From Candidatus Woykebacteria bacterium (lineage in GTDB: Bacteria > Patescibacteriota > Microgenomatia > Woykebacterales > RBG-16-39-9b), in contig JBBDPM010000001.1 of assembly GCA_040876345.1 (NCBI GenBank), positions 116,688 through 180,687 on the forward strand: a DNA stretch of 64,000 nucleotides. Reading direction: 5' to 3'. The notes below the pieces were generated by a model. That model was not told where the DNA came from. It was given only the letters and a program-made list of their open reading frames with translations, and did no database searches. A program made the position numbers and the translations under genes. Each line of letters begins with the position of its first letter. The stretch's first letter is position 1. Shown here piece by piece: positions 6,494-30,797 of the stretch.

Positions 6494-7312
6494 GTGAAAT
6501 GCCCGGTTTGTGGTGAAGATACAATCGAGAAAGACGGGAAAGCGTATTGCCCATCTTGTAATATTTTCCTTGGAGACGTTTCGAGTATACCGCAATTTGG
6601 TTCTAGGGCCAAGGAAGAAGAGGCCGGTAAAATTTTCCAAAAGCGGGCAAAGAAAAGCTTTCGGGCCGCTCTTTTAACAATCTTTTTAGTTCTTCTTATA
6701 GTATCCCCAATTGCAGCCTATCTTGGTCTTAATTTTACTTCTTTCGGATACAGAGAAAAAGTTTTTTATAAGTATGGATTTACGGCGGAAGCAAGTAGTT
6801 ATTTGAGAAGAAAAACAAGCATCTTCGTAGTTAATATTTCTGAAACAAGGCCTTTCGGCTTTACTCACAGCGGTTATTGGTCAAAATCGGCTGGTGGGAA
6901 TTCGATTAAATTAAACACCGCTAATGACGAAGTGGCAGTTCATGAACTGGCCCACGCTTGGTGGGACAAAATAAGTGTTGATAAAAGTTTGAAGCAAGGT
7001 TTAGTCAACGATACTATTCGGTTATCTAAGCTGAATGATAGCCGCTATAATCAAGCTGTTAAGAAAGCGGGCTTGATTGTAAGCAACTTTTGCAATTGCC
7101 TAAATCCAGCAACAGTAAATTACAAAGGAGTTGATGATCATCATTTCTATGCCTACATGGCCCAATTTACAATGGGTAACTTTAAAGACGGCCCTCACCA
7201 ATTACCAAGCTTTATGTGGAAATACTTTGATAGTATGTTTTTAGGCAAAACAAGAGTTGTTTCCTGTTACGAAACTAAAAGTTGTGGGTTTCCTGACGAC
7301 AACGATCTCTAA
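6494..7312 (+). CDS. Membrane protein with an N-terminal zinc ribbon and an HExxH motif
   Basis: GTG start. CxxC..CxxC (CPVCGEDTIEKDGKAYCPSC), one TM helix, then an extracytoplasmic domain containing HELAH. Confidence 0.5.
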   Translation: MKCPVCGEDTIEKDGKAYCPSCNIFLGDVSSIPQFGSRAKEEEAGKIFQKRAKKSFRAALLTIFLVLLIVSPIAAYLGLNFTSFGYREKVFYKYGFTAEASSYLRRKTSIFVVNISETRPFGFTHSGYWSKSAGGNSIKLNTANDEVAVHELAHAWWDKISVDKSLKQGLVNDTIRLSKLNDSRYNQAVKKAGLIVSNFCNCLNPATVNYKGVDDHHFYAYMAQFTMGNFKDGPHQLPSFMWKYFDSMFLGKTRVVSCYETKSCGFPDDNDL

Positions 7313-7329: not shown

Positions 7330-7728
7330 TTAAAACACCTCAAGTGCGCTTATCGCTTCTTGGATGTGGGGTATAAACAACACTAGACCGACTATCACTG
7401 AGAAAATTGAAATGAGCAATACCGAGGCAGCCGAAACATCTTTTGCTATCTTAGCTTTAGGAAGAATTTTTTCCTGAGAAGCAAGATCCACCGCAAGTTC
7501 AATTACTGTATTCAAAAGCTCGGCTGTCAGAACCAAAGAAATAGTAAGAAAAAGTAAAACCCATTCAAATCGAGCAAAGTTAAAAATCCAAGCAAGAATG
7601 AGGACTAAAATTCCAAGTAGCGCTTGAATTCTGAAGTTTCGCCCTTCTCTTAGTGCATGAATTAGACCATCAAAAGCATATTTGAAGCTGTTAACTTGTT
7701 CTTTATCTGGGTCAACCCGCTGCTCCAT
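7330..7728 (-). CDS. dgkA: Diacylglycerol kinase / undecaprenol kinase family
   Basis: Prokaryotic DAGK signature (FKYAFDGLIHALREGRNFRIQ, ELLNTVIELAVD, AKDVSAASVL) and three TM helices. 132 aa. Confidence 0.8.
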   Translation of the reverse strand: MEQRVDPDKEQVNSFKYAFDGLIHALREGRNFRIQALLGILVLILAWIFNFARFEWVLLFLTISLVLTAELLNTVIELAVDLASQEKILPKAKIAKDVSAASVLLISIFSVIVGLVLFIPHIQEAISALEVF

Positions 7729-7785
7729 AAGTTTAAAACTAATAATATCAAATTTAATCTAGGAACGTTAGAGGATAAAGATATG

Positions 7786-8283
7786 TTATCTGGTTACACT
7801 GATGGAAGGTGCTCCACCACCAGGGTCTTCTGATAGGGGACCAGAGACAGTAACTCGATTGTTTGCAGATCTTCTAATAGTATATCCGGTATTATAATCC
7901 GTGCAGTCGGTGTATTGAAGTGTAGCATCATTTGGATCTGGATCCACGGGCATCTCGGCTAGATATCTTTGGGTTGCCCCAACTAAATCATCACAAATAT
8001 CAGCTCCAGCGTCGCTAATTACCGCAGAGGCTGTGCCGATGTTAGTGGGAATTCTGCCTTCCTCAGCGTAAAATTGGCCAACTGCATTCAATACCGCTAG
8101 GACGTCGGATCTTCTGGTGGTGTTCCTTGCCAAAATAAATTGCCTTGGCGGATTAACAGCGATCAAAACAATTGCAAGTAAGACGGCTAATATTCCGATG
8201 ACAACAAGAAGCTCGATTAGAGTGAAACCTCGCTCGCGGTTCTTTGAAGATTTATTTACTTTCTTGTGGAAGGGCAGATACAT
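7786..8283 (-). CDS. Type IV major pilin (prepilin with a class III signal peptide)
   Basis: Leader followed by G|FTLIELLVVIGILAVLLAI with Glu at +5. C-terminal Cys residues suggest a disulfide loop. It is the last gene of the pilus operon. Confidence 0.75.
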   Translation of the reverse strand: MYLPFHKKVNKSSKNRERGFTLIELLVVIGILAVLLAIVLIAVNPPRQFILARNTTRRSDVLAVLNAVGQFYAEEGRIPTNIGTASAVISDAGADICDDLVGATQRYLAEMPVDPDPNDATLQYTDCTDYNTGYTIRRSANNRVTVSGPLSEDPGGGAPSISVTR

Positions 8284-8284
8284 T

Positions 8285-9748
8285 TTACTGTTTACCTATA
8301 ATTACCTGTGCATCGGCCGAGCTGGACTCGGCAAGCGCTGCATCTATAACAACAGTATATCTAGTTGATAAATCCTTTGTCAAGAGAGGTAGATAATCTA
8401 GCTTCGATTTCTTAATTCTTATTTCAGTTTTAGTAAAGTTGTAGTTTGCAGCGTTTCCGGAAGAGATAACGTTGTAACCTTTTAGTTTTAGAAAATCAGC
8501 TGCCTCATTAGCCGACCCTGGAACACCGTTACCGTTGAGCGCTTCAACTTTCAACGATGATTTTTTTAGCACCGGTTTCGGCTCTTCCTCTTTCTTTGCA
8601 GATGAAGTTGCCTCTGGTACTTCTTTCGTGGCTGAGGCGGTAGCTGAAGGTGTTGCTGAAGGAATAGCTGAGGCAGTTGCCGGTTGGACGGATGGGGAAG
8701 CTAGAGTTTGCTTATCCCTTCCTTTTGGGGTCGAAAAAAGGCTGAAGATTTTTGGGGTGAGTAGAGCTAAGGTTATGATAATAACAACCAAAGCGGCCCA
8801 AGGCATCAAGCGGCGCAAGCTGGTTTTCGGTAGTATTGGGGTCTGAATTACTTTAGATTTGGTAGGCTCGTGCTCGTAGACTTCTCTTATGTGAAATCCG
8901 GGTATATACTTATTTAGCCCGGTTGCCAGGATCAGTCTTTTAAAGGCCGAGAAATCTCCAATTTGAGGGTTGACCTTCCCAAAAGCAACGGGGAGAAGGG
9001 AGCCAGTAAAACCTGTCTCCTTAACAATATTTAGTATTTCTTCTTCTCTTTCCCCGAATACAAAAATCTCAAAAGCACTGCCCTCTCTAAGTTTTTTAAT
9101 TTCTGCCTCTACCAGCTCCTTAATCCAGGAAGAGAGCCTCTCCTTATTAAAAACTCCGTCTTTGAAGTGTTTTGTTGTTGAAAAATAAATACCCCCATCA
9201 AATACTACCGAGAACAAAACCGAGGCTCCTTCAAGGGAAATAACAAGGGCGGGCTTGGTAGATTTCTCCAGGAAGGGAAGAAAAACGACTGGTTCTGGAA
9301 TTATTGAATTAATCTTCAATCCCAAATCCGCAAAAAGTTTTTGATAAAAACTAATTAGCTCCTGAGGAGAGGCGACAAGTTGAATGCTTTTGTTTTTTAA
9401 AAGCCGCAAGCTTGTGTAGCTTCCTTTCAGAGGATAAGGTACACTTTCCTGAACTTTTGGATCTTCAATTAAGTCCTTTTCTTTTTCGGCCTCAATAACT
9501 TTAAGGAAACTTCCCTCTTCTGCAAGTAGTATGTTGATATGATGAGATTTTGCCTCAGTCACGCTGCCGAGAAGTTGGCCAAGTTTTAACTTTACCTCAT
9601 CATAATTCTTTATCGCCCCCGACTGTATAGATCCATCATTGATTTCGACACTCCCAGAATTGATTAGATCAAATTTGCTGCCAGATTTCTCCACAATAGA
9701 GGCTTTAATCGATTTTTCATTGAAACTAAGAATTAATTCTTTAGCCAT
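8285..9748 (-). CDS. PilM-like pilus assembly protein fused to a TM segment, an Ala/Ser/Thr/Pro linker and a C-terminal LytR_C-like domain
   Basis: The N-terminus resembles actin-like PilM (LILSFNEKSIKASIVEK..). TM helix at about aa 315-335. The low-complexity linker is followed by LKVEALNGNGVPGSANEAADFLKLKGYNVISSGNA..TVVIDAAL, matching the LytR_C pattern. Confidence 0.55.
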   Translation of the reverse strand: MAKELILSFNEKSIKASIVEKSGSKFDLINSGSVEINDGSIQSGAIKNYDEVKLKLGQLLGSVTEAKSHHINILLAEEGSFLKVIEAEKEKDLIEDPKVQESVPYPLKGSYTSLRLLKNKSIQLVASPQELISFYQKLFADLGLKINSIIPEPVVFLPFLEKSTKPALVISLEGASVLFSVVFDGGIYFSTTKHFKDGVFNKERLSSWIKELVEAEIKKLREGSAFEIFVFGEREEEILNIVKETGFTGSLLPVAFGKVNPQIGDFSAFKRLILATGLNKYIPGFHIREVYEHEPTKSKVIQTPILPKTSLRRLMPWAALVVIIITLALLTPKIFSLFSTPKGRDKQTLASPSVQPATASAIPSATPSATASATKEVPEATSSAKKEEEPKPVLKKSSLKVEALNGNGVPGSANEAADFLKLKGYNVISSGNAANYNFTKTEIRIKKSKLDYLPLLTKDLSTRYTVVIDAALAESSSADAQVIIGKQ

Positions 9749-9751
9749 TTT

Positions 9752-10126
9752 TTAAGGAGTTTCCTTCCATGAGGTAGTAGTTAGAATATTATTAGAGATT
9801 GTCACGGAAACTTCAACCCTTCTCTTTAAATTGTTTTTTGTGGCGACGCTTGCAATCAACCTGGGATTAGGAGATAAGGGTACAGCGACTTGTACGGAGG
9901 CACCGTCTGGCGTAACAAAGGTTTCGCCGGTATAACTTGGGTCACGGAGAAGTTTTATTAGTGCTTGTTCGACGCCAGACTCAGCTGCATAATGAATAAT
10001 TTCCGTTTGGGTGGCTCGCCCGACGTTTTGAGCAAAACTAGTCGACACTAAAGCAATGCTTGTAGCCAAAGTGGTCATGGCAATTACAATTAATATTGTG
10101 ACAAGGGCTTGTCCTTTTTGATTCAT
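9752..10126 (-). CDS. PilX-like minor pilin (PilX_N-type N-terminus)
   Basis: QKGQALVTILIVIAMTTLA .. AAESGVEQAL fits the PilX N-terminal domain pattern. Its start overlaps the upstream gene's stop (ATGA). Confidence 0.5.
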   Translation of the reverse strand: MNQKGQALVTILIVIAMTTLATSIALVSTSFAQNVGRATQTEIIHYAAESGVEQALIKLLRDPSYTGETFVTPDGASVQVAVPLSPNPRLIASVATKNNLKRRVEVSVTISNNILTTTSWKETP

Positions 10127-10638
10127 GGTCTTTCTCTTAAGCTTATAACAGTACTAAAATTCTTGGATTGGAGGCTAGTCTTCGTCGGCTCGGTTGAAGA
10201 TAAAGTGAAGGTTAAAATGACAGTTGGGAATCCTCCTTGGTTACCAATATTTGTGAATTGCAGATTGTTTGCCTGTATAAAATCGCCGGTTATGGGTACG
10301 CTTGGCCCTGAAGTCTGCAAGTTTATAGTTGAGCCGGACAAAGTGTAGCGGTAGTCGCCCCCGTTTATCCGAAGCCAGAGTATTGAACTTGTATTCCCTG
10401 GGGCAGCGGGGTCACGCACTTCTTGGGCTCTTCTGATGTCATAAGTGAGCCTTTTTAATAAGTAACTACCTTCCGTTTCAAGTCGATTTCGAGCGGTTGA
10501 CTCAAGGTTGGACTCAGATATCCTGAATAAAAGGTCAAGGCCGATAACTAGAATTATAGATAATAAAGTAAAATAGATAAGTATTTCTATTAAAGTAAAT
10601 CCTTTATCGTTTCTCAAACCTTTCTTAAAAGTTTTCAT
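10123..10638 (-). CDS. Pseudopilin / minor pilin with a prepilin-type N-terminus
   Basis: KG|FTLIEILIYFTLLSIIL cleavage/methylation motif. 171 aa. Confidence 0.65.
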   Translation of the reverse strand: MKTFKKGLRNDKGFTLIEILIYFTLLSIILVIGLDLLFRISESNLESTARNRLETEGSYLLKRLTYDIRRAQEVRDPAAPGNTSSILWLRINGGDYRYTLSGSTINLQTSGPSVPITGDFIQANNLQFTNIGNQGGFPTVILTFTLSSTEPTKTSLQSKNFSTVISLRERP

Positions 10639-13214
10639 GGTGAATAATTTACAATAACGTCTTGTAATACAGGGGTGATAATGCCATTCCCAGAAAATTC
10701 AACTTTATACCGAAAGTGGCGTTTACTGACAAGCGCAAGTGGTATTGCTCCAGGACTGTCAAAGTAAGTGGCTGATGTGCCGTCTGGTCCAACAAAACTA
10801 CTACTTAACCACGGGCCGTCCGAATTCAGAGAAGCTATCTGGAATTTAATATTTGTTGTTAGTGGTGGCGCATTCTCCGACCAAGTAACTCGGTTGAAAC
10901 CGACGTTGCTTCCAGCATCAAATGTTCTTGATTCAAAAGTACCAAGCCCCGCAAAATCTGGCCCAATGCCAGGCCCAACAATCTGCAGTTCCCTGGAGTT
11001 GTGAACTGTAGCAAGAAAAGCAACGTTCGCTTCAAAAAATATTCCGTTCGCGTCTCCATCTAGATCTCGTGACCCAAGTTCGGCTATTGCCGAGGGTGTT
11101 TGGACATTAAGAAGCAAAAACTCTTTGTTACTAACCGTCGTTGCTAAGAAAGCTATGTTTCCCGCTATCCAAACACCATTGACGTTACTGCCCACGTTAT
11201 AAGTTGAAGGTGGTGAGTTACTTACCAAACTGATACTTGCTGGATTTGTGACGTTAAGGATATTAAATTCGGGGCCAGAGCCGTTATTTTGGGTTGCAAG
11301 ATAGGCTGTATTGCTGTTCACAAAAACTTCGGAACCATCTGAGTTTGAAGCAGCGTTGTAAGAGCCAATCTCGGTTGGCAGAGTTTTATTGGTAATGTCC
11401 ACCACCATGAGCTCTTTATCATCACGGGCAGTAGCTAAATAGGCTCGATTTCCAACAACGGTTACTCCATAAACTGCATTTGCGTTGACCGGTCCATTAC
11501 CTACCTCAAAACTTCCGATAACGTTTGGGTTGGGTGTGTGAGGACAGGTCAGACCAAAGCGGCTCGCCGCTAAATTTACATCGGTGATACTTACAATTTT
11601 GTCACCATTTATGTCTGAAGGCACATCACCTGTCATACCCACGTTAGACACTATTGTGCCGATATCAACGTTATCAACTCGGTTATCTCCGGTTACATCA
11701 AAACAAGTGTTAACACTTGCTATATAAAGTTCTCGGGCGGTCCCGCTGGAAGATTGTTTTGTTATATAAGCAAATTTGAGTCTGCCAGAGCCTTGTACTG
11801 TGATGTCCAATGCGTCTACAGCGTCTCCAAGATCAAGTGTAGCAACTTTGGCAGGGGCTGCCTTATTACTTATGTTAATTACGGTTAGCTCCTCAGTAGC
11901 ATGGCTCGTGGCCAGATAAGCAAATTGCCCGCTGGTTGCACTGTCTTCCACTGAGATTCCGTTGACGTCGGCCGTTAAATTAAGTGTTCCAGTAACCACG
12001 GGACTTGCCGGGTTAGAGACGTTGATAATCGCGAAATCTGGGGCGCTGCCAGCATCTTGTATACCCACGTAAGCATAATTATTCAACACGAATGTATCGA
12101 CCCCATTTCCATTGCCGGAGTTATCATAGTTTGCTAAAGATTGCGGATTTCCCCAGTTAATGTTTCTTTTCAGCTGTACTTCTCCACCAGAAACGCTTGT
12201 AGTTTCCGTGTTGGATAAGGTGCCGGAGTTAAAATCTGCTTGAGTAGTTTGCACCCAGGTAGTGTTTCCCAAAGTCCTTGTTAAATAGAATGTGTTTTGG
12301 ATGTTTCCACCGAAAAATGAGGTCCAAGAAACATTAGAGGTGATTTTTTTTGTGGAAGTGTCTATTGTGCCAGAGGGGCAGGTGACAAGGTTGTTACTAG
12401 AATCACGACAAGCATCTCCAATTTCTACTTGTCTAGTGAAATTTCCGACTGTTTCTGATCCAGTTTCAAGACGCCAAGTTTTAGCAGGATCAAGGCCGGA
12501 AAGAGTCATATTTTGAATATAGGTTGGAGAAAAACAGAGGAGGGGGTTTAAACTACAGTTTGTTTTTATCACCCAAATCTCAACTATAGTAGTTGGCGTA
12601 TAAGGCGGAAATGTGGCAGTCAGTTCTCCGGAAGACCCTGGTGTCCCAATATAATCGGCAATTGCGTTTGATGGGGTGCAGCCGCCTTGGGGGCAAATAG
12701 AAACCCGCTCCTCTATACCGGGGTTCAGACCAGTAAGTTTTAAACTTGAAATTGTGTTAAAAGCGAAACACGACAGGGGTTCTAAGGGCCCACCACAGTT
12801 TGAAGTTTTTAATACCCATACTTCAACAATGGCTTGAGGTGTTAGTGGTGTGTATTGAGGAAAATTAACATCAAGCTGACCGGGACCGAAGGAATAATCT
12901 GTATCCTGGGTAAAAACACCATTTTGACACCCAGAAGTTTGGCAAATTGATACTGAGTATTCTCTGCCAGACGGCTCAATATGATAAGTTCCGTTTGTTA
13001 GCTTAGACCAGCCCGACTCTCTTACAGAACGCATTGCTTCTCCTTGCAAAAGAGAGGAGGTTTCGGCGGCAAGAACGTTTGCAGCTCTCTCTCGAGACTC
13101 TCTTGTGCTAACCAAAAGAAGGCTGACGCTGGTCAAAACAATAGCGACAATACCAAAGCCGATGACGAGTTCAATTAAAGCTTGCCCATTTTTAGTTAAT
13201 CGTGACTCTTCCAT
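10635..13214 (-). CDS. Giant pilin-like protein (859 aa), a putative pilus-tip adhesin. Pilin-like N-terminus, tandem Cys-containing repeats, a dockerin-like Ca-binding module, and LVIVD-type beta-propeller repeats
   Basis: N-terminus NG|QALIELVIGFGIVAIVL has Glu at +5. Two roughly 85-aa tandem repeats each carry 4 Cys. DVTGDNRVDNVDIGTIVSNVG and DINGDKIVSITDVNLAASRFG resemble dockerin type I repeats. Repeated (A)Y(L/V)AT..(E)L.V(I/V)(N/D)(I/V)(S/T)N(P/K)..P units match LVIVD repeats. Confidence 0.65.
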   Translation of the reverse strand: MEESRLTKNGQALIELVIGFGIVAIVLTSVSLLLVSTRESRERAANVLAAETSSLLQGEAMRSVRESGWSKLTNGTYHIEPSGREYSVSICQTSGCQNGVFTQDTDYSFGPGQLDVNFPQYTPLTPQAIVEVWVLKTSNCGGPLEPLSCFAFNTISSLKLTGLNPGIEERVSICPQGGCTPSNAIADYIGTPGSSGELTATFPPYTPTTIVEIWVIKTNCSLNPLLCFSPTYIQNMTLSGLDPAKTWRLETGSETVGNFTRQVEIGDACRDSSNNLVTCPSGTIDTSTKKITSNVSWTSFFGGNIQNTFYLTRTLGNTTWVQTTQADFNSGTLSNTETTSVSGGEVQLKRNINWGNPQSLANYDNSGNGNGVDTFVLNNYAYVGIQDAGSAPDFAIINVSNPASPVVTGTLNLTADVNGISVEDSATSGQFAYLATSHATEELTVINISNKAAPAKVATLDLGDAVDALDITVQGSGRLKFAYITKQSSSGTARELYIASVNTCFDVTGDNRVDNVDIGTIVSNVGMTGDVPSDINGDKIVSITDVNLAASRFGLTCPHTPNPNVIGSFEVGNGPVNANAVYGVTVVGNRAYLATARDDKELMVVDITNKTLPTEIGSYNAASNSDGSEVFVNSNTAYLATQNNGSGPEFNILNVTNPASISLVSNSPPSTYNVGSNVNGVWIAGNIAFLATTVSNKEFLLLNVQTPSAIAELGSRDLDGDANGIFFEANVAFLATVHNSRELQIVGPGIGPDFAGLGTFESRTFDAGSNVGFNRVTWSENAPPLTTNIKFQIASLNSDGPWLSSSFVGPDGTSATYFDSPGAIPLALVSKRHFRYKVEFSGNGIITPVLQDVIVNYSP
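12449..12947 (-). repeat. In-frame tandem duplication (2 x ~85 aa) inside the giant pilin-like gene
   Basis: Protein repeats CQTSGCQNG..FPQYTPLTPQAIVEVWVLKTSNCGGPLEPLSCF and CPQGGCTPS..FPPYTPTTIVEIWVIKTNCSLNPLLCF. Coordinates are approximate. Confidence 0.5.
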
Positions 13215-13680
13215 ATTGATTTATGGTAAACGCTCTAGTTTGACCAGTATTAGATTCAGTTAACGCGAAGTTATTTTGGGCACCGCTGTAGTTTTGTACC
13301 TCCCCTGAAAGTTTAGAAAAGATAATGTTACTAGAGGGTAAATTTATTGGGCTTATGGATATGCTTGGCTCAAACGTAGTTTCTAGGTTGGCTGTATCAC
13401 TTAGGTTGTAAGAAGCTCCTTTGAAAATAACGATTTTGTTTTGTTCAAAATGCACACCGTGGCTTTCGGCTGAGGAAGATCCCCCCGTGCTTCCCACCAT
13501 AGCTAGGTTTTGAGCTTCTTTAAGTGCAAAATAGATTTGGTCTTCGGCCGCTCTTATGTCGGCTTGGGATTTTGGTCTAGTGATACTCACTAATATGAAT
13601 CCAAAAGCTAAAGAAAATAGGGCGATAACTAATATAATTTCTATTAGGGTAAAGCCAGAAGACTTTAGAGATTTTCTCAT
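13192..13680 (-). CDS. Pseudopilin / minor pilin with a prepilin-type N-terminus
   Basis: SG|FTLIEIILVIALFSLAFGF motif. 162 aa. Overlaps both neighbours. Confidence 0.65.
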   Translation of the reverse strand: MRKSLKSSGFTLIEIILVIALFSLAFGFILVSITRPKSQADIRAAEDQIYFALKEAQNLAMVGSTGGSSSAESHGVHFEQNKIVIFKGASYNLSDTANLETTFEPSISISPINLPSSNIIFSKLSGEVQNYSGAQNNFALTESNTGQTRAFTINQYGRVTIN

Positions 13681-14780
13681 CCTGGGCTTATTTGGCTAAT
13701 TAATTGGTAAATTGGAGAAATTACAGCTAGGATCACAGAGCCAACAATAATACCAATTACAATGATTAAAGCTGGCTCAATTACCGTGGACAGGGTTTTT
13801 ACTTCGCGGGAGAGTTTGTCGTGGTAGTGGAGGGCTACACCAGCCAGGACTTCGTCGAGTTGTCCAGTTTTCTCTCCGGTGGAGATTATTCGAGTCATTA
13901 GAGTAGGAAAAGTTTTAAATTCTCTCATCCCCTCGGCCAACCCCTTACCTTCAGTCAATTTATGAGTTACTTCTTCAAGTTCACGCTTGGTTCTCTTATT
14001 CAAAACCACAGTTGATGAAGCTTCGACCGCCTTAATTATGGGAATGCCAGCCGAAAGTAGTAAGGATAAGGTGGACGAAAGGCGTGATAAGTCAAGATAT
14101 CTCAAGACACTTCCGAAAACTGGGATGTGAAAAGAAGCGGTGAGTAGTTTTTTCCGTACTTCTTTATTTGATAGTAAAATTATTGTGCCAATAGCAGCGA
14201 TTAAGATGAATATACCGACAAAAATATAGTATTTGTTTACAAAAAGAGCAGTGGAAAGGAGGATTCTTGTTGGTAATGGTTTGGGAATAGTAAGCTTTTC
14301 AAATATTTCGGCAACTCTGGGAACAACAAATCCAAAAAGAACCGCCATTACGAAAAAAAGCACGCCCAAGACAATCGCTGGGTAAAAAGCGGCTTGTTTA
14401 ATATCGTTTTTTAACTCTTCCTCTTGTTTCATGTTGTCGGAGAGCTGTTTGAGTACTTTATCCAAGCCCCCGCTTTCCTCTCCGGCTTTGACAGTATTTA
14501 CAAATATATCGTCAAAAATATTGGGGAATTGAGAGAAGCTTTCAGCAAGGTTGTGCCCTTTTTGGATGGAGTCTCTAACCGAGCGGACCACACCTTTAGT
14601 CTTTAAGTTGTCGGAGTCGTTTTCAATGCTTTCAAAAGCATCTAAAATTGGGATTCCGGCCCCAAGCATGATCCCTAAAGACTCGACTAAGGTGAGTCTT
14701 TCAATAAAAGGAAGTTTTACCTTAAGGGGGATTATTTTCGGCTCTTTTTTAACTGTGAAATTAAACATTGGCAGTTTCAA
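13677..14780 (-). CDS. pilC: Type IV pilus inner-membrane platform protein PilC (GspF family)
   Basis: Two GspF-type repeats (..GEESGGLDKVL.. and ..GEKTGQLDEVL..) and three TM segments. 367 aa. Confidence 0.85.
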   Translation of the reverse strand: MKLPMFNFTVKKEPKIIPLKVKLPFIERLTLVESLGIMLGAGIPILDAFESIENDSDNLKTKGVVRSVRDSIQKGHNLAESFSQFPNIFDDIFVNTVKAGEESGGLDKVLKQLSDNMKQEEELKNDIKQAAFYPAIVLGVLFFVMAVLFGFVVPRVAEIFEKLTIPKPLPTRILLSTALFVNKYYIFVGIFILIAAIGTIILLSNKEVRKKLLTASFHIPVFGSVLRYLDLSRLSSTLSLLLSAGIPIIKAVEASSTVVLNKRTKRELEEVTHKLTEGKGLAEGMREFKTFPTLMTRIISTGEKTGQLDEVLAGVALHYHDKLSREVKTLSTVIEPALIIVIGIIVGSVILAVISPIYQLISQISPG

Positions 14781-15049
14781 CCAAAATTATACCACTTGTG
14801 GGTGTTAAAGTAGATTCCAAAGTTTGACCCCAAACCCATAGCTATGTTATGATCAGGTACGAAATTTGTTGAAACAGCTTCGGATGGGTATTTTGTCGAC
14901 TAAGATTTAATCGCCAGTGAGCCCAATCTGAGGCCGCCGTAGGAGGGATTTCGATCAGTTTCGGGACGGTGTTACCCATGCAGCCCCAACCACATTTCCT
15001 AGTGAAGCCGTTAGTGGATCTAGGTGGGGCACCGAAAAGGAGGAAAGTG

Positions 15050-15649
15050 ATGTGGCGTACAGTAGAAGGACGAAGAGTTCTAAGGCCAACCGATAGAGAT
15101 CTTAAGCCTCGGGCAAGCAAACTCCAAGATGTCGCGAGGGTTATCAAAGGGCTAGGGTCTCCAGAATCGGTGGATATCTACGTTTCGAAGTGGCGGTTTG
15201 GTGTTACGATGCTGGGTGTTAATAGCAACATCAAAGGCGCAGTTCCCATAGGCGAGGTGGTAGAAGCTCTCAACATAGAGTTTGGGCGTGGTGAGTACCA
15301 CCAAGTAGGTGTTCAGCATGTAGGTGAATGGATTCTCTCACTTGCGACCACCTGCCCTGTCTTTTGGGCCTACACCGAGGATCGCTCTTGCTACATCGGG
15401 CGGCACGATCCGGTTGTAGCGGGGGGCACAGTGCTGTACAAGCACAGCGATGAATGCCCTTGTAGGCATCATGGAGTCAGCTGCAGCGTCCGGCCTTGCG
15501 GGGATTGCAAGGGAAGTTGTCCAATGATTCGTAAATGCACGAACTGTGGGAGTCGTTGGGATCTGAACAGGAAGCCTCCACGGCCGCTGACGCTCATTTG
15601 GACTCCGGTCCACGTTTCTAACCCCTGGTCTAGGGAGCAAGAAACGTAA
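15050..15649 (+). CDS. Hypothetical Cys-rich protein in a GC-rich (55-60% GC) island, antisense to the pilus operon
   Basis: Consensus SD (AAGGAGG, 15037-15043) lies 6 nt upstream of the ATG. The 200-codon ORF stays open across sequence at about 58% GC (chance p ~1e-3). The C-terminus has Cys pairs (CPCRHHG..CGDCKGSCP..CTNCG). The track ORF 14969-15649 includes an unlikely 5' extension. Confidence 0.45.
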   Translation: MWRTVEGRRVLRPTDRDLKPRASKLQDVARVIKGLGSPESVDIYVSKWRFGVTMLGVNSNIKGAVPIGEVVEALNIEFGRGEYHQVGVQHVGEWILSLATTCPVFWAYTEDRSCYIGRHDPVVAGGTVLYKHSDECPCRHHGVSCSVRPCGDCKGSCPMIRKCTNCGSRWDLNRKPPRPLTLIWTPVHVSNPWSREQET

Positions 15650-15716
15650 CGATTGTCGATCGTACTGGGTGGCGGTGGCAGGCTTGCCCTTCACCGCTGC
15701 CCACAGTTCTTATGTG

Positions 15717-17405
15717 TTATTCGCTTACTGCGCGGATGACTTCGCCAAGGCTTGTTTGGCCTTCGGCCACTTTTTCTAAGCCATCTTCAATCATTAGTTT
15801 AAAGCCTTCAGATTTTGCCTGATCCATTAGTTTTTGAATTGACGACTTGTCAAAAATTAGCTTGCGTAGGTCCTCACTCACCCGCAGTACTTCGTAAATC
15901 CCAACTCTTCCTCGGAAACCGGTATTTGAGCATTCTGGGCAGCCTTTTCCACGCCTTGCTTCTACTTTACCGGCCAAAAAACCGGCTACTACTTCTTCGC
16001 CGTATTCTTTAGCAAGGTCTTTAAGAACGCTTTCTTTAATCTCCTCTTTTACAAGGCAAGATGGGCAATTTCTGGCTACAAGTCGCTGCGAAATCACTAA
16101 ATTAAGGGTGGATCCAATTAGATAAGGCTGGGCTCCAAGGTCGTAAAGCCTTGGAATTGTACTGACTGCATCGTTCGTATGTAAAGAGCTCAGTACTAAA
16201 TGACCAGTTAGAGCAGCGTGAATTGCAATTTCGGAAGTTTCTTCATCGCGGATTTCTCCGACTAAAATTACGTTTGGATCATGCCTCAGGATTGCCCGAA
16301 GCCCAGAGGCAAAAGTAAGGCCAGCTTTAGGATTTATTTGGGTTTGGTTTACTCGGGGGAGTCCATATTCAATTGGATCTTCAATAGTGCAGATATTGAC
16401 ACTAGAGGTGTTGAGAATTATTAGCAGGTTGTATAGGGTTGTCGTTTTACCACTTCCCGTGGGGCCAGTTGAAAGTACCATACCATGGGATTTTTGGATG
16501 CCTTCTTTAACTAGTTTTAAGTTATTACCAGAGAGTCCAAGATCCTCCAAAGTCTTTGGTCTTGCTGCCGATGAAAGAAGCCGCATTACGGCGTCCTCAC
16601 CGTGATAGGTAGATAATATCGAGACCCTTACTGATATTTCGTCCGAGCGGTGTTTGAAGCGAAATCTACCGTCTTGGGGGAGCCGGTGCTCATCGGTGCG
16701 CAGATCTGAAATTATTTTTATCCTGGTGATTAATCCAGCCTGAATTGTGGTTGGAAGCTCTAAAACATCTCTAAGCCTGCCGTCAACCCTGAAGCGGATT
16801 ATTACTCTATCACCTACATTTTCAATGTGAATATCACTGGCTCTCTCCGATGCCGCAAAGTCTAATATTGTATCCAGGATTTTTACAACTGGAAGATCCT
16901 CACCACCGACTGCTCCTTTCGCTTTTGCTTGGGAGACGTTTTCCTCAATAATTTCCTTAAAATCCTTCCTTATATCCTTATGATATTGATCGAGGACGTC
17001 ATCTATTATTGAAGGTAGAGTGAAGTATATTTCTACTGACCCACCAACCTTTTTCTTGATAAAATCTAGGGCTTCAGGGTCTTGAGGATTTTCAAGCGCA
17101 ATTTTTACACTGTTACCATCTTTGGCAAAAGTCACCGCCCTTTTTTCAGCGGCTATCTCCTCGGGGATAAGATCTAAGATTGATTTTTCGATTTTATGGT
17201 CTTTTAGATCGGCGTAAGGGTAACCAACGTATTCGGCGATCGCTTGCCCAAGAAACTTCTCTAATATTACACCACGTTCTATTAATACATCAGTTAAGGG
17301 TTTATTTAGGTCAGAAGCAGCTTTTTCTGCCTCTTGTAGTTCGGCAGGATCAACAAATCCAGATTTTAAGATAAGCTTTTTAAGCTCATTACCTTCAATG
17401 GTCAT
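15717..17405 (-). CDS. pilB: Type IV pilus assembly ATPase PilB (GspE family)
   Basis: Walker A (STGPTGSGKTTTLY), Asp and His boxes, and a C-terminal tetracysteine motif (CPSC..CPEC). 562 aa. Confidence 0.9.
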   Translation of the reverse strand: MTIEGNELKKLILKSGFVDPAELQEAEKAASDLNKPLTDVLIERGVILEKFLGQAIAEYVGYPYADLKDHKIEKSILDLIPEEIAAEKRAVTFAKDGNSVKIALENPQDPEALDFIKKKVGGSVEIYFTLPSIIDDVLDQYHKDIRKDFKEIIEENVSQAKAKGAVGGEDLPVVKILDTILDFAASERASDIHIENVGDRVIIRFRVDGRLRDVLELPTTIQAGLITRIKIISDLRTDEHRLPQDGRFRFKHRSDEISVRVSILSTYHGEDAVMRLLSSAARPKTLEDLGLSGNNLKLVKEGIQKSHGMVLSTGPTGSGKTTTLYNLLIILNTSSVNICTIEDPIEYGLPRVNQTQINPKAGLTFASGLRAILRHDPNVILVGEIRDEETSEIAIHAALTGHLVLSSLHTNDAVSTIPRLYDLGAQPYLIGSTLNLVISQRLVARNCPSCLVKEEIKESVLKDLAKEYGEEVVAGFLAGKVEARRGKGCPECSNTGFRGRVGIYEVLRVSEDLRKLIFDKSSIQKLMDQAKSEGFKLMIEDGLEKVAEGQTSLGEVIRAVSE

Positions 17406-17770
17406 TTGGAATACTCGCGGATTTTATCAACAATTTCTTGGGGGGTGACATCTGTCTTCATGAATATTTCTTTCGCGCCTAAGCTTTTGCATTTTTTTAC
17501 ATCTTCTTCGGAAACATTTAGGTTTGTTAAAACAATCACCGGTATGTCTTTTGTTTCCGAGTCTCCTTTGATTTTTTCCAAAACTTCTGTACCACTCATT
17601 TTCGGTAACATTATATCGAGTACTATTACATCTGGCTTGGTGTCCTTTACTTTTTGCAGACCTTCTTCACCGTCCAGAGCAGTTTCAACCTGAAATCCGT
17701 CATGAGTGAATTTCATGTTATACATCTTCACCATTAAAGAGTCGTCCTCAACAAGCAGTACCTTACTCAT
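17402..17770 (-). CDS. Single-domain response regulator (CheY-like receiver)
   Basis: Receiver domain with the acidic pocket (LLVEDD) and phospho-acceptor Asp (VIVLDIMLP). No output domain. Its stop overlaps the pilB start. Confidence 0.8.
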   Translation of the reverse strand: MSKVLLVEDDSLMVKMYNMKFTHDGFQVETALDGEEGLQKVKDTKPDVIVLDIMLPKMSGTEVLEKIKGDSETKDIPVIVLTNLNVSEEDVKKCKSLGAKEIFMKTDVTPQEIVDKIREYSK

Positions 17771-18567
17771 CAGTTTTTACCCTCCTCTTGTGTAAGATTT
17801 TCAGCTACTTCTCTTGCTTTTTTACTGCCAGTTGTGGGTAAAGAAAAACAGAATTTTGAGCCCTCTTGAGGCTTACTTTCTCCAAGCCAAATTTTTCCAC
17901 CAAGTTTCTCAATAATGACTTTAGAAATATAAAGGCCTAGGCCACTGCCGCCCGAAACTCTAGTTTCTTTAGTTGAGGCTTGGGAAAATTTTTCGAAAAG
18001 ATGCGATTGCTTTTCCACTGGTACTCCCGCTCCGGTGTCGGCAACACAAGTTATTACGTAGTCTTCCTTCTGTGAAAAGTTAACCGTAATAGAGCCTTTT
18101 TTCGTAAATTTCATAGCGTTACCGACAAGATTAATTAGTACTTGAACTAGCTTGTCGGTGTCAGCTTGGACCTTTGGTAAATTTTCTGAAGGCGCTTCAA
18201 GAATTAGAGAAAGCTTTTTTTCGGAAGCGGAACGAATCAAAGATTGTAATAGAAGCCTTGCTTGTTCAACCACATCAATGTCGTCTCGTAAAATAAATTG
18301 CATTCGGCCAGCCTCAAGCCTGCTTATATCCAGCATGCCGTTGACAAGCCTGATTTCCCGCTCAACCGCAAGGAGCATTTCAGTAAGAACGTCCCTGACT
18401 TGAGGTGAGACAGGTCCTGCATCTCCGGCAAGAAGCATGTTTAAGTAACCTTTAATAGTGGACATTGGGGTACGTAGCTCATGAGAAACAATTGAAATAA
18501 ACTCATCCTTAACGGATTCCAACTTTTCTGTCTGGACATTTTGTTTTTGGGAGGTAGTCTCTTGCAT
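17770..18567 (-). CDS. Cytoplasmic histidine kinase (HisKA + HATPase_c, no sensor or TM)
   Basis: H-box SHELRTPMSTIKGY, N-box NLVGNAMKFT, G-boxes DTGAGV and GGSGLGL. Its stop overlaps the response regulator start. Confidence 0.8.
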   Translation of the reverse strand: MQETTSQKQNVQTEKLESVKDEFISIVSHELRTPMSTIKGYLNMLLAGDAGPVSPQVRDVLTEMLLAVEREIRLVNGMLDISRLEAGRMQFILRDDIDVVEQARLLLQSLIRSASEKKLSLILEAPSENLPKVQADTDKLVQVLINLVGNAMKFTKKGSITVNFSQKEDYVITCVADTGAGVPVEKQSHLFEKFSQASTKETRVSGGSGLGLYISKVIIEKLGGKIWLGESKPQEGSKFCFSLPTTGSKKAREVAENLTQEEGKN

Positions 18568-18701
18568 ATTGAGAGTTTGCCTAAGTTATCTTTAGTTTAC
18601 TCTACGTTCAGCTAAGGGTCAACCGCACTTAGTTAAAGCTTCTTGTGAAGGGTGAAATCAAACCTTTCGTAAAATGCAAAAATAGGTTAAATTAGAGTGT
18701 C

Positions 18702-21261: not shown

Positions 21262-21567
21262 TTAATATCTTCGGTCTCTGCTAAAACCACTTCGTTTGAA
21301 GCCGCCTGATGGGCGTTCTTCACGAGGTCTAGCTTCGTTGACGACAATTGCTCTTCCAGAAAGCTCTTTACCAGTAAGCTCTTTTATTGCTTTTTCCGCT
21401 TCTTCATCGCTTCCCATTTCCACAAAACCAAAACCTTTTGAGTTGCCGCTGAACTTGTCAGTAACCAAAGTAGCTTCTTTCACGCTGCCAACAGTAGAAA
21501 AAAGTTCTTCTAGTTGACTTTGAGTGACATCGTAGGATAAAGATCCTACAAATAACCTTTTAGCCAT
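21262..21567 (-). CDS. RRM-type RNA-binding protein
   Basis: RNP-2 (LFVGSL) and RNP-1 (KGFGFVEM) motifs with a Gly/Arg-rich C-tail. Confidence 0.8.
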   Translation of the reverse strand: MAKRLFVGSLSYDVTQSQLEELFSTVGSVKEATLVTDKFSGNSKGFGFVEMGSDEEAEKAIKELTGKELSGRAIVVNEARPREERPSGGFKRSGFSRDRRY

Positions 21568-24104: not shown

Positions 24105-24383
24105 TTATTTCCTGTTGATTATATACTTTTTAGTTGCTTTCCTGCTCGGAATAATAGTCTTCAAAAAAACTTTTTCCATATCTTCTACGAATGGGACTAA
24201 GTACGCGTAGTTTTCAATATTAACAACAAACAATTTTTGATTGGGATGACTTTTAGGGTTTGGGTGCTCCATTATATCTAAGATTGCCCCTTCAGAAATT
24301 GCCAGCACCACTTCTTCAAAAGAAATATCGCGTTGTCCCTTTAACTCTTGGTTTTTCTTCTCATCCCAATCGAGATGTTTCAC
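24105..24383 (-). CDS. brnT: BrnT-type ribonuclease toxin
   Basis: LDWDEKKNQELKGQRDISFEEV and the C-terminal IIPSRKATKKY match BrnT (COG2929) motifs. Confidence 0.6.
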   Translation of the reverse strand: MKHLDWDEKKNQELKGQRDISFEEVVLAISEGAILDIMEHPNPKSHPNQKLFVVNIENYAYLVPFVEDMEKVFLKTIIPSRKATKKYIINRK

Positions 24384-24745
24384 TTATGTATTCTATGACA
24401 AAAGATATTATATGTCAATAATGACAAGCGGTTAAGGAGATACAATCTGACACCTTGCGTATTTGAGTTTAAGGTGTACACTTATAAGGTGATACCAAAT
24501 ATAAGAGAATTCATCTCCTATCACAATGAGCATATCTTAGACATAGAATTAACCGCAAATTTTGAAACAATCTCGGCTTTTGCCTCCAAGAAAAATATTG
24601 CTCTTACTGACCTGTCTATAGAAAAACATCGTCTCCCCTTCATCAACTGGATCACCAGCCTTGCGAGTTCAAAAATCTAATCTTAAGTCTTAAGGAAATT
24701 TGAAGGATAGAATTACCGTTTAGGTTTAATATGATCCCGGAGGTG

Positions 24746-25156
24746 TCAAGGAAAAGGATTAAAAACTTTGATTGGAAATTTTTGAAAGTCCTTAACGTTG
24801 TCAGTAGCAATAGTATCAATATCATTGGTTAAAGCAGCCGCGTCTAGGTAGGCGTCAAAAATTCTGTTGCCGCCTAGAGAGTGTTTTTTTATCAACTCCA
24901 ATCCTATAAAGATTGTTCTAATATTTGGACTAATTATCCGTCCAATCTCTGCAATTTTCAAAACTGATTCTACTGCCTGTTCTGGTTCCATTGGGCTTGG
25001 AAATTTAGAATGAGTCAATATTCTGATAGATTCAAGTATGTTTTGATGGGTGATTTCCAAATTCTCTTTGTTCTCTTTTAAAAATTTTTGGGATAAGGTG
25101 TATTTAGGAGAGTCCGCATTAATTGCGTAAATCAAAATGTTGCTATCAATGAGCAT
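24746..25156 (-). CDS. vapC: PIN-domain toxin VapC
   Basis: MLIDSNILIYA (Asp5), the FDAYL and TDN acidic residues of the PIN fold. Its start overlaps the antitoxin. Confidence 0.75.
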   Translation of the reverse strand: MLIDSNILIYAINADSPKYTLSQKFLKENKENLEITHQNILESIRILTHSKFPSPMEPEQAVESVLKIAEIGRIISPNIRTIFIGLELIKKHSLGGNRIFDAYLDAAALTNDIDTIATDNVKDFQKFPIKVFNPFP

Positions 25157-30289: not shown

Positions 30290-30559
30290 CTAGCGATTAT
30301 AAATTGCGTGGGTTCCTATATTGTCAAAAACAACCACGCTGCCTTCTTCAAAGTGAAAAACTATCCTCCATTGGTATGAAACGGAAAATGAGTAAAAATC
30401 GGCCAGTTTGCCCTTCAACTTGTGAGTTTTTAACCTTGGATCGAAAACGTCCTCCTTGAATATTTGTTCTTGCTTCTTGAGAGATTTGAGTTCTGAGCTG
30501 GGAAATCTTTTCAAACTTTTGAAAAAGGCAGATGAATATTTAATCTGCTTGGGCTTCAT
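30290..30559 (-). CDS. RelE/ParE-family toxin
   Basis: LKTHKLKGKLADFYSFSVSYQWRIVFHFEEGSVVVFDNIGTHAIY fits the RelE/ParE fold signature. It overlaps the upstream antitoxin. Confidence 0.65.
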   Translation of the reverse strand: MKPKQIKYSSAFFKSLKRFPSSELKSLKKQEQIFKEDVFDPRLKTHKLKGKLADFYSFSVSYQWRIVFHFEEGSVVVFDNIGTHAIYNR

Positions 30560-30797
30560 TCCAAAGTTCCTCTAACGAGCCTTTTAACACTTTTGCCTTG
30601 CCCTCTCTTGCTTCCTCACGGCTTTGTAATACAGATAAAACCGCTTCCATCTCTGCAAGTTCCGTAGCATCGATTATTGCAACCTGGGGCTTGTTATTCT
30701 TCATTACAAATATGGGCTCCTTGGTTTTCTTCGCCTGATCGAAGATTTTTTTGTAATTACGCTGTATTTCTCTGGCAGTAGTAGTTTTTGGAAACAT
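30540..30797 (-). CDS. Phd/YefM-family antitoxin
   Basis: The N-terminus T..EIQRNYKKIFDQAKKTKEPIFVMKNNKPQVAIID is typical of Phd/YefM. 85 aa. Confidence 0.65.
   Translation of the reverse strand: MFPKTTTAREIQRNYKKIFDQAKKTKEPIFVMKNNKPQVAIIDATELAEMEAVLSVLQSREEAREGKAKVLKGSLEELWNEAQAD

Follow-up and report, generated by a model that had tools for sequence, protein, structure and literature searches.

How does a bacterium of the candidate phyla radiation (CPR) control the deployment of its type IV pili, and what is a GC-rich segment of opposite orientation doing inside the operon that encodes them? Both questions are raised by a locus in a 64,000-nt stretch of Candidatus Woykebacteria DNA (GenBank assembly GCA_040876345.1, contig JBBDPM010000001.1, positions 116,688 to 180,687 of the forward strand; the whole stretch is called the window and coordinates count from its first letter). 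Here a histidine kinase (HK) and a CheY-like response regulator (RR) head a row of type IV pilus genes that is interrupted between pilB and pilC. The explanation that we consider best for the locus as a whole, and hold with reasonable rather than strong confidence, is a pilus operon in which the kinase and the CheY-like protein would gate PilB after translation, one prepilin would be a tip adhesin, the pilin gene would have its own promoter and the GC-rich segment would be an independent foreign cassette.

Open reading frame (ORF) prediction combined with Pfam and NCBIfam calls resolved the minus strand from 7330 to 18567 into a single tightly packed gene row with the order HK, RR, pilB, GC island, pilC, a minor prepilin (pp1), a giant prepilin, a second minor prepilin (pp2), a pilX-like gene, pilM-LytR_C, the major pilin and a diacylglycerol kinase-family (DAGK) gene. 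ORFs and domains agree with the type IV pilus operon and gene order proposed in an initial annotation of this DNA. Three NCBI Candidatus Woykebacteria metagenome-assembled genomes (MAGs) encode proteins with 100% identity to HK, RR, PilB and PilC, the window sequence is also present on a 237-kb Logan contig (run SRR27977661), and among GTDB species representatives the closest PilB belongs to Chisholmbacteria (49% identity). The region is a vertically inherited type IV pilus assembly operon of Candidatus Woykebacteria.

The initial annotation had also described most junctions as 4-nt ATGA overlaps and nearly all of them as translationally coupled. ATGA overlaps occur at only four of the nine junctions (RR/pilB, where the RR stop overlaps the pilB start, pilC/pp1, giant prepilin/pp2 and pp2/pilX); the RR start overlaps the HK stop by 1 nt, pp1 and the giant prepilin overlap by 23 nt, and gaps of 3 nt and 1 nt separate pilX from pilM and pilM from the pilin gene. 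Tight spacing held at eight of the nine; the exception is pilB/pilC, which are 936 nt apart and have lost the coupling of their relatives. The window was further scanned for the missing pil families using precomputed Pfam calls for the genes at ~19.5–62.3 kb and six ORFs of 0–7.3 kb and 19.6–20.7 kb, with the last ~1.7 kb and some small ORFs left outside. No Peptidase_A24 (PilD), second T2SSE (PilT), PilN, PilO or secretin was found among these called and scanned genes, in agreement with what had been stated earlier for pilT, pilD and pilN/O/Q.

CPR type IV pilus loci have been described as co-localised pilB, pilC, pilM, major and several minor pilins without a secretin (Meheust et al. 2019, PMC6744442; PMC12206443). 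The present locus shares this pil gene set with them and with Saccharibacteria TM7x (T4P-1 and T4P-2), likewise with no secretin in the window, and its pilus machinery is an ordinary member of the group. It differs in that PilN and PilO are unrecognisable, PilM is fused to a transmembrane (TM) segment and LytR_C, and PilC is missing ~45 aa of its N-domain. It differs further in its HK and RR, since neither description mentions a kinase or a response regulator. The kinase/CheY pair travelling with the row and the antisense cassette are the novelties, and modest ones; a description of a kinase/RR pair at CPR pilus loci or of an inserted antisense cassette was not found in the searched literature, an absence of evidence given the incomplete coverage.

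The kinase (17770–18567, minus strand; 265 aa) matched HisKA at 1.6e-15 and HATPase_c at 6.6e-28, with an H box, SHELRTP, at about residue 28–29 and N, G1 and G2 boxes present. Domain and hydrophobicity scans found no TM or hydrophobic segment, no PAS and no HAMP domain, and hence no sensor or input domain in this soluble protein. The Woykebacteria orthologues (261–339 aa) also have no TM segment, and their differences are confined to an N-terminal extension of low-complexity or coiled-coil character; as they are equally without TM segment and sensor, the absence of a sensor characterises the lineage and is no artefact of truncation. The kinases of the corresponding Parcubacteria modules are 311–371 aa long and have two N-terminal TM helices after a conserved LNxKKQAxELGxSxWQxPSFLF, seen directly upstream of RR-pilB in loci L006, L011, L013, L014, L023, L033, L037, L043, L050, L078 and others. 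This motif and the two helices may constitute an input for sensing within the membrane, which the Woykebacteria kinases would have lost.

The RR (17402–17770, minus strand; 122 aa) is a single CheY-like domain (Response_reg 5.7e-23, residues 4–117 of 122) in which the phosphorylation-site residues D9, D10, D52, T82 and K105 are all present. The kinase (H, N, G1 and G2 boxes) and the receiver (D-D-D-T-K quintet) thus have the intact catalytic motifs of a classical two-component system, from which they depart in the missing sensor domain. Pfam and NCBIfam detected no output, DNA-binding, helix-turn-helix (HTH) or AAA+ domain in the RR, and all RRs of such modules that we examined consist of 122–126 aa of receiver only. 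The description of a sensor-less kinase and a CheY-like regulator at the head of the operon was borne out by these domain searches.

The pair could be a mere conserved neighbour that regulates something else and stands beside pilB by chance or through shared expression; some CPR pilB-pilC loci do lack it. We looked up six HK orthologues, namely the homologues at 75, 70, 56 and 52% identity and the window HK in its Logan and NCBI assemblies. All six (52–100% identity) head the same HK-RR-PilB-PilC-prepilin-large prepilin-prepilin-PilX-PilM/LytR_C(-pilin-DAGK) row, which recurs in L093/L094, L095, L096/L097 and L098 (HKs 52–75% identical). The initial annotation would have been contradicted by a pair conserved next to unrelated genes; only the closest non-orthologous kinase, a PAS-HK paralogue of 46% identity, lies among unrelated genes, with no pilus neighbours. 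Window proteins were also mapped onto 80 PilB loci of GTDB genomes, 69 of them with upstream sequence. A receiver-only RR lies directly upstream of pilB in 19 of the 69 and an HK-RR pair in 16, with representatives in Moranii-/Paceibacterota, Wildermuthbacteria and others, and 15 of the 26 loci with pilC after pilB are among those carrying the pair (our count from the locus map). The other PilB loci are either copies without recognised pilus neighbours or pilus loci without HK-RR. The adjacency spans lineages whose PilB is only 42–49% identical to that of the window, the RR and pilB genes overlap from stop to start, and no proteins of the Woykebacteria operon are better conserved than RR (80/74/57% identity) and PilB (78/77/61%). 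A mere neighbour is quite improbable in the face of these data. The HK-RR pair is a conserved, non-accidental part of the Woykebacteria pilus operon, as had been claimed, and lies beside pilB in many other CPR lineages.

How would the pair act on the pilus? The initial annotation had placed the whole machinery, as one transcription unit, under a single two-component switch. In such a scheme the 11-kb row would be one transcript and the RR would bind a partner transcription factor, sigma factor or RNA polymerase; PilS-PilR is established to control pilin transcription in other bacteria, and here HK and RR head a co-directional row with eight of nine junctions at 3 nt or less. A consensus scan also found a promoter-like TTGACC-17-TAAACT upstream of HK (18594–18622, minus strand), whose core TTGAC...TA(A/C)ACT is kept in four relatives while the remaining intergenic DNA has diverged; this site is likely the operon promoter. 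Three findings argue against the scheme. The RR is a 122-aa receiver without HTH or AAA+ domain, as in every module examined. A second promoter-like site, TTGACA-18-TATACT (8354–8383, minus strand), lies within the 3'-terminal part of pilM, ~70 nt ahead of the pilin ATG; it matches the consensus at 11 of 12 positions, more than any other site of the region, and L093 and L095 keep it almost unchanged, third codon positions included, with variable codons on either side. Read together, this site and the conserved one upstream of HK speak against a purely transcriptional single switch. The pilin gene probably has a strong promoter of its own. Finally, in this strain 936 nt of convergent, antisense DNA with a strong hairpin parts pilB from pilC. 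A transcriptional switch is on balance unlikely, and the claim of one switch over one transcription unit is not supported in that form.

Because the RR has no output domain and a conserved promoter-like site precedes the pilin gene, we prefer post-translational gating of PilB over a single transcriptional switch. HK would phosphorylate the CheY-like RR, and the phosphorylated RR, which would not be a transcription factor, would act directly on the PilB motor or the PilB-PilC interface to turn pilus extension on or off after translation. The giant prepilin would sit at the pilus tip as a host or surface adhesin, and the pilin gene would be driven by its own strong promoter. The cassette would be independent and horizontally acquired, with the uncoupling of pilC and the downstream genes from pilB as its sole demonstrable effect on the pilus, and an outward-facing −10 element at the end of the insert might compensate for that uncoupling.

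By analogy, this mode of action would in principle be closest to that of CheY-type motor regulators. PilR is an NtrC-type protein (AAA+ sigma-54 activator plus HTH) and PilS a multi-TM sensor; the Woykebacteria locus resembles PilS-PilR in having a dedicated two-component pair with type IV pilus genes and differs from it in its receiver-only RR and soluble HK. Single receivers that steer extension without DNA binding are described in the literature (review PMC11656802), namely PilG/PilH of the Pseudomonas Pil-Chp system and the PATAN-CheY proteins PixG/PixE of Synechocystis, and direct PilB1 contact is reported for the latter. The RR is likewise a single receiver, with the cyanobacterial PATAN-CheY proteins as the closest parallel and PilG/PilH as a looser one. 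Both of these systems are fed by CheA-type kinases in chemotaxis-like arrays (receptor, CheW, Hpt), whereas the kinase here is a minimal HisKA/HATPase protein without a receptor, and no CheA, CheW or methyl-accepting chemotaxis protein was found in the window. The RR also lacks the PATAN domain of PixG/PixE, and in this locus the genes of the pair are coupled to pilB in translation.

PilB (15717–17405, minus strand; 562 aa) is a PilB-type extension ATPase with matches to T2SSE (1.4e-121), MshEN (1.1e-13) and TIGR02538 (2.4e-149; 498 bits, under the equivalog cut-off of 675). A Walker A motif, GPTGSGKT, at 314 and a zinc (tetracysteine) motif of CPSC plus CPEC place it among the PilB/GspE ATPases. 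Its N terminus has the two-motif MshEN layout, at residues 7–30 and 36–59, with the Arg and Gln positions replaced as judged by eye, and scores 19 bits against NF053729, for which the cut-off is 38. MshEN motifs reportedly have conserved Arg, Gly and Gln for binding of cyclic di-GMP (c-di-GMP), as Wang et al. are said to have found in 2016. A layout of two 24-aa motifs spaced by 5 aa is the one given for the MshEN c-di-GMP receptor in PMC11656802. If Arg and Gln are truly lost, the MshEN domain of PilB could conceivably be free for a ligand other than c-di-GMP.

The platform protein PilC (13677–14768, minus strand, 363 aa from the ATG; to 14780 and 367 aa from a TTG) has the two T2SSF stretches of PilC/GspF proteins (8.4e-55). 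Woykebacteria PilC (window, L093, L095, L096 and L098) measure 354–363 aa and are without ~45 aa of the N-terminal cytoplasmic subdomain present in other CPR PilC of ~405 aa. Truncation of pilC by the GC island was ruled out: the N terminus, MFNFTVKK, aligns with the MPxFxYTAK of relatives from residue 1, the missing ~45 aa are internal and the orthologues are all equally short.

Class III prepilin signals (Gly−1, a hydrophobic helix and Glu+5) were found in four proteins of the row as G/FTLIE or G/QALIE, with the slash between positions −1 and +1, and a fifth, GspK/PilX-like protein has the signal without Glu5. The major pilin (7786–8283, minus strand; 165 aa) begins with RG/FTLIE, matches N_methyl at 7.8e-10 and is 61–64% identical to its orthologues. 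Two minor prepilins also have G/FTLIE: pp1 (13192–13680, minus strand; N_methyl 5.8e-5) is GspH-like, with a GspH match of 1.9e-8 that is under the curated cut-off, and pp2 (10123–10638, minus strand) matches N_methyl at 2.7e-7. The GspK/PilX-like minor pilin (9752–10126, minus strand) gave a weak GspK match (0.0017), and its N terminus, KG/QALVT, was read directly from the sequence.

The giant prepilin (10635–13214, minus strand; 859 aa) fuses a prepilin N terminus, KNG/QALIE, to a beta-propeller of LVIVD repeats (2.3e-18). Dockerin-like D-x-N-x-D repeats lie at residues 506 and 534, and the L095 orthologue has a faint Dockerin_1 match. With identities of 49/31/24% and lengths of 859/837/624/609 aa among orthologues, it is the fastest-evolving protein of the operon. 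Two tandem Cys repeats of ~75–90 aa, at residues ~88–165 and ~172–245 (SICQTSGC...LTGLNP and SICPQGGC...LSGLDP), were noticed by eye before the LVIVD propeller. In TM7x, whose T4P-2 system has no retraction ATPase, a beta-propeller on the pilin PilX2 binds the host (PMC12206443); the propeller there is of RCC1 type. The giant prepilin also resembles the PilY1/minor-pilin priming complex, in that the genes for minor pilins include one for a large propeller with Ca-binding-like repeats and Glu5 is missing from a GspK/PilX-like pilin. PilY1 is not a pilin, however, whereas the propeller here is fused to a prepilin N terminus (G/QALIE), as in TM7x PilX2. On these analogies the giant prepilin is a probable tip adhesin candidate.

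The PilM-like protein (8285–9748, minus strand; 487 aa) joins an ATPase-like fold to a TM segment, a low-complexity linker and a C-terminal LytR_C domain (6.8e-8). Residues 1–305 had no direct Pfam match, and a jackhmmer search over the ORFs of the fetched loci connected them to the CPR PilM family, including the PilM of the Chisholmbacteria relative L002 (PilM_2 1.5e-19), which identifies this part as PilM-like. Residues ~340–395 contain the TM segment and a Ser/Ala/Thr/Pro-rich linker leading to LytR_C. In L002, PilM is fused to PilN and a further ORF may be PilO-like, the latter judged by position alone. Downstream of these, the LytR_C-like part is, by eye, a separate 184-aa protein.

Could the machinery chiefly be a ComG- or T2SS-like pseudopilus, of the competence or secretion kind, that serves DNA uptake and is not an adhesive host-binding pilus? 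The window has no retraction ATPase, the short PilC is ComGB-like and matches NF041012 over nearly its full length, the minor pilins weakly match GspH, GspK and ComG models, a TfoX_N gene lies ~3.5 kb upstream of the operon in L093/L094, and DNA uptake has been proposed for CPR pili (PMC6744442). Opposed to this, the best match of PilB is the type IV-A PilB model, and the row encodes a PilM homologue as well as a T4a-like major pilin. Its fastest-evolving product is the 859-aa propeller/dockerin-like prepilin, as is typical of an adhesin, and the locus of the host-binding TM7x PilX2 is also without PilT (PMC12206443). We regard a pseudopilus as rather doubtful and keep to the adhesive pilus, noting that adhesion and DNA-uptake roles are mutually compatible.

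We turn to the segment between pilB and pilC. It is a lineage-specific insertion of 936 nt (0.93 kb; 14781–15716, unstranded) with a GC content of 50–57%, compared with ~40% in the flanking genes and 42% in the whole window. Since the pilB-pilC spacers of relatives are only 6–14 nt (empty sites), the island is a true insertion, as had been proposed; it is absent from all five related operons. The window retains the last part of the native spacer, AACTGCCA, directly before the pilC ATG, and a GAACTG/GAAACTG pair of 6–7 nt at the island ends is a possible target-site duplication. No transposase and no convincing terminal repeats were found in the island. An independent NCBI assembly, L101 (GCA_040903525.1, JBBDVF010000004.1), has the island with 100% identity, which dismisses an assembly chimera. 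The same identity dismisses a presence/absence polymorphism, suggested by the occurrence of its ORF in 3 contigs and of PilB in 6: the NCBI MAG carries the island and the gene was simply uncalled. NCBI annotates no gene in the island (the PilC, PilB and RR accessions are consecutive, and L101 has none), leaving the ORF and its leader described below unannotated in GenBank.

The island may bear on pilC expression in one way. The pilC gene has no Shine-Dalgarno sequence; in relatives it is coupled to the pilB stop, here 936 nt off. At the end of the insert, 17 nt upstream of the pilC ATG, an outward-facing extended −10 element, TGGTATAAT (14786–14794, minus strand), was read from the sequence and could supply pilC transcription.

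On the plus strand the island has the layout of a complete gene. A consensus scan found a TG-extended promoter-like TTGACC-18-TATGAT (14824–14853), followed by a structured 5' leader of ~155 nt with three stem regions (14877–15032; RNAalifold) and by ORF199 (15050–15649), a Cys-rich orphan of 199 codons, antisense to the operon, with AAGGAGG 6 nt before its ATG. A GC-rich hairpin of 38 nt (15667–15704), seen in the plus-strand fold between the convergent ORF199 and pilB stops, is a candidate ORF199 terminator. ORF199 gave nothing significant in Pfam, NCBIfam, PHROGs, PADLOC or a PDB profile search and only its self-match in a 5.8-billion-sequence index. Among 1.84 billion representatives a single homologue cluster was found (P0002, 183 aa, 37–39% identity, E 2.9e-23), encoded in a metagenome contig, L085. 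Nine Cys and three His are invariant between the two proteins, in ECPCxxHG...PCGDCxG(x)CP...CxxCxSxW.

The homologue in L085 is preceded, at the equivalent position, by TTGACT-17-TATAAT and likewise has GC-rich hairpins 3' of its stop codon. Its leader is 66% identical to that of ORF199, compared with 52% for the coding sequences (CDSs), in which most indels are multiples of 3. In the RNAalifold comparison of the two leaders, 7 of 39 pairs have changed on both sides with 100% pairing, compared with 0–2 such pairs and 33–53% pairing in slid controls, which is suggestive of a conserved leader structure. The fold z-score of the island is −2.6 on the plus strand. The ORF199 product is possibly Zn- or Fe-S-binding and under the control of a cis-regulatory RNA. 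Further copies of the leader or cassette were not found in a viral scan, a metagenome pattern scan returned the known L085 and four chance matches, and a covariance model (R1) run over 0.55 Mb of CPR DNA found no new leader.

P0002 adjoins a small rve insertion sequence (IS) and lies outside it, with hypothetical genes and no pilus gene around. From the same metagenome comes a related Woykebacteria pilus operon that is free of the insert. The IS itself (L085, 8797–9768) is compact, ~970 bp, with a 294-aa rve transposase and 27-nt imperfect inverted repeats. The rve integrase was rejected as a part of the cassette, as the inverted repeats stop before the P0002 promoter. Known 'moron'-like orphan cassettes with riboswitch-type leaders are similar in being self-contained promoter-leader-ORF-terminator units of atypical GC content between host genes, with the leader conserved above the ORF. 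The island differs from them in that it has no transposase, no clear terminal repeats, no phage context and no Rfam leader, and in that its family comprises two clusters.

We take the island to be an independent, horizontally acquired antisense cassette that is foreign to the operon. A functional regulator of the pilus, as an antisense or convergent brake on pilB/pilC or as a regulator protein, would fit its position exactly between pilB and pilC, its direction toward pilB, its own promoter-like site and a leader able to sense a signal. It is missing from all five related operons, however, and its only homologue stands beside an IS and hypothetical genes, away from pilus genes, in a metagenome with an insert-free operon, which makes such a role improbable. 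A known RNA or an intron was rejected. Rfam gave nothing at gathering score over the whole window and, at E<=10 in 14600–15900, just two chance matches to small nucleolar RNAs; ARAGORN was empty; and the minus-strand fold was not significant (z = −0.66). The Rfam and minus-strand results also oppose the idea of a gene for a non-coding RNA, or of foreign junk, in which ORF199 would be spurious. That idea would accord with the lack of an NCBI CDS between PilC and PilB, with the plus-strand fold and with a leader better conserved than the ORF. It is contradicted by a frame open over 226 codons in 53% GC DNA, by the ribosome-binding AAGGAGG and by a protein homologue with invariant Cys/His and indels mostly in multiples of 3, and is very hard to credit. 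The foreign coding cassette remains our reading of the island.

Several points weigh against the explanation that we have assembled. The sensor-less kinase leaves the input signal unexplained, and we infer the RR-PilB interaction from synteny, conservation and analogy alone. Chisholmbacteria L002, the closest GTDB relative outside Woykebacteria, has RR-PilB without an adjacent HK, L003 lacks both HK and RR at pilB, and the pair is missing from ~40% of CPR pilB-pilC loci, so that the module falls short of being universal. The promoter-like sites were recognised by their match to a consensus, 23 in the region compared with 19.9 expected by chance, and the one before the pilin gene lies within coding sequence, where conservation may partly reflect the protein. 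The leader structure comes from one pairwise comparison of two distinct sequences and was derived from the same alignment, and the AF2 model of ORF199 (pLDDT 41) is unusable. As pilD is not in the window, pilin maturation is not confirmable from this region.

Downstream of the pilin, the co-directional block ends with the diacylglycerol/undecaprenol kinase-family gene (7330–7728, minus strand; DAGK_prokar), which is 3' of the pilin also in L093, L094 and L095. Between it and a 2-Hacid_dh gene, a plus-strand ORF of 272 aa (6494–7312) with an N-terminal zinc ribbon (CPVC...CPSC), a TM segment and a HELAH (HExxH) motif looks like a membrane-anchored metalloprotease; it has no counterpart at that position in L093. 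On the other side of the operon, a 101-aa protein (21262–21567, minus strand) has a eukaryote-type RRM_1 RNA-recognition motif. Toxin-antitoxin genes at ~24105–25156 and ~30290–30797 comprise a PIN-domain protein with an upstream 80-aa ORF, a weak BrnT-like toxin match, and a PhdYeFM antitoxin with a YafQ/HigB-like toxin.

A wider generalisation of these observations can be offered only tentatively. A minimal kinase and receiver-only CheY coupled to PilB may be a CPR-wide phospho-switch on the motor that controls host attachment, in a two-TM form in Parcubacteria and a soluble, sensor-less form in Woykebacteria; separately, the cassette may represent a new class of cis-regulatory RNA before a new metal-binding family. 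As it stands, the cassette is a rare pair of orphan protein and leader RNA that public annotation missed, with a small chance of a new regulatory RNA, and it indicates that the core operon of a reduced genome tolerates a foreign antisense gene. Host specificity has a candidate determinant in the fast-evolving propeller pilin. Among CPR organelles, type IV pili have the best support for a role in host attachment and DNA uptake, and the HK-CheY-PilB module of three genes, compact enough to be studied by in-vitro phosphotransfer and binding assays and by structure prediction of the complex, is a testable candidate for the control of their deployment.

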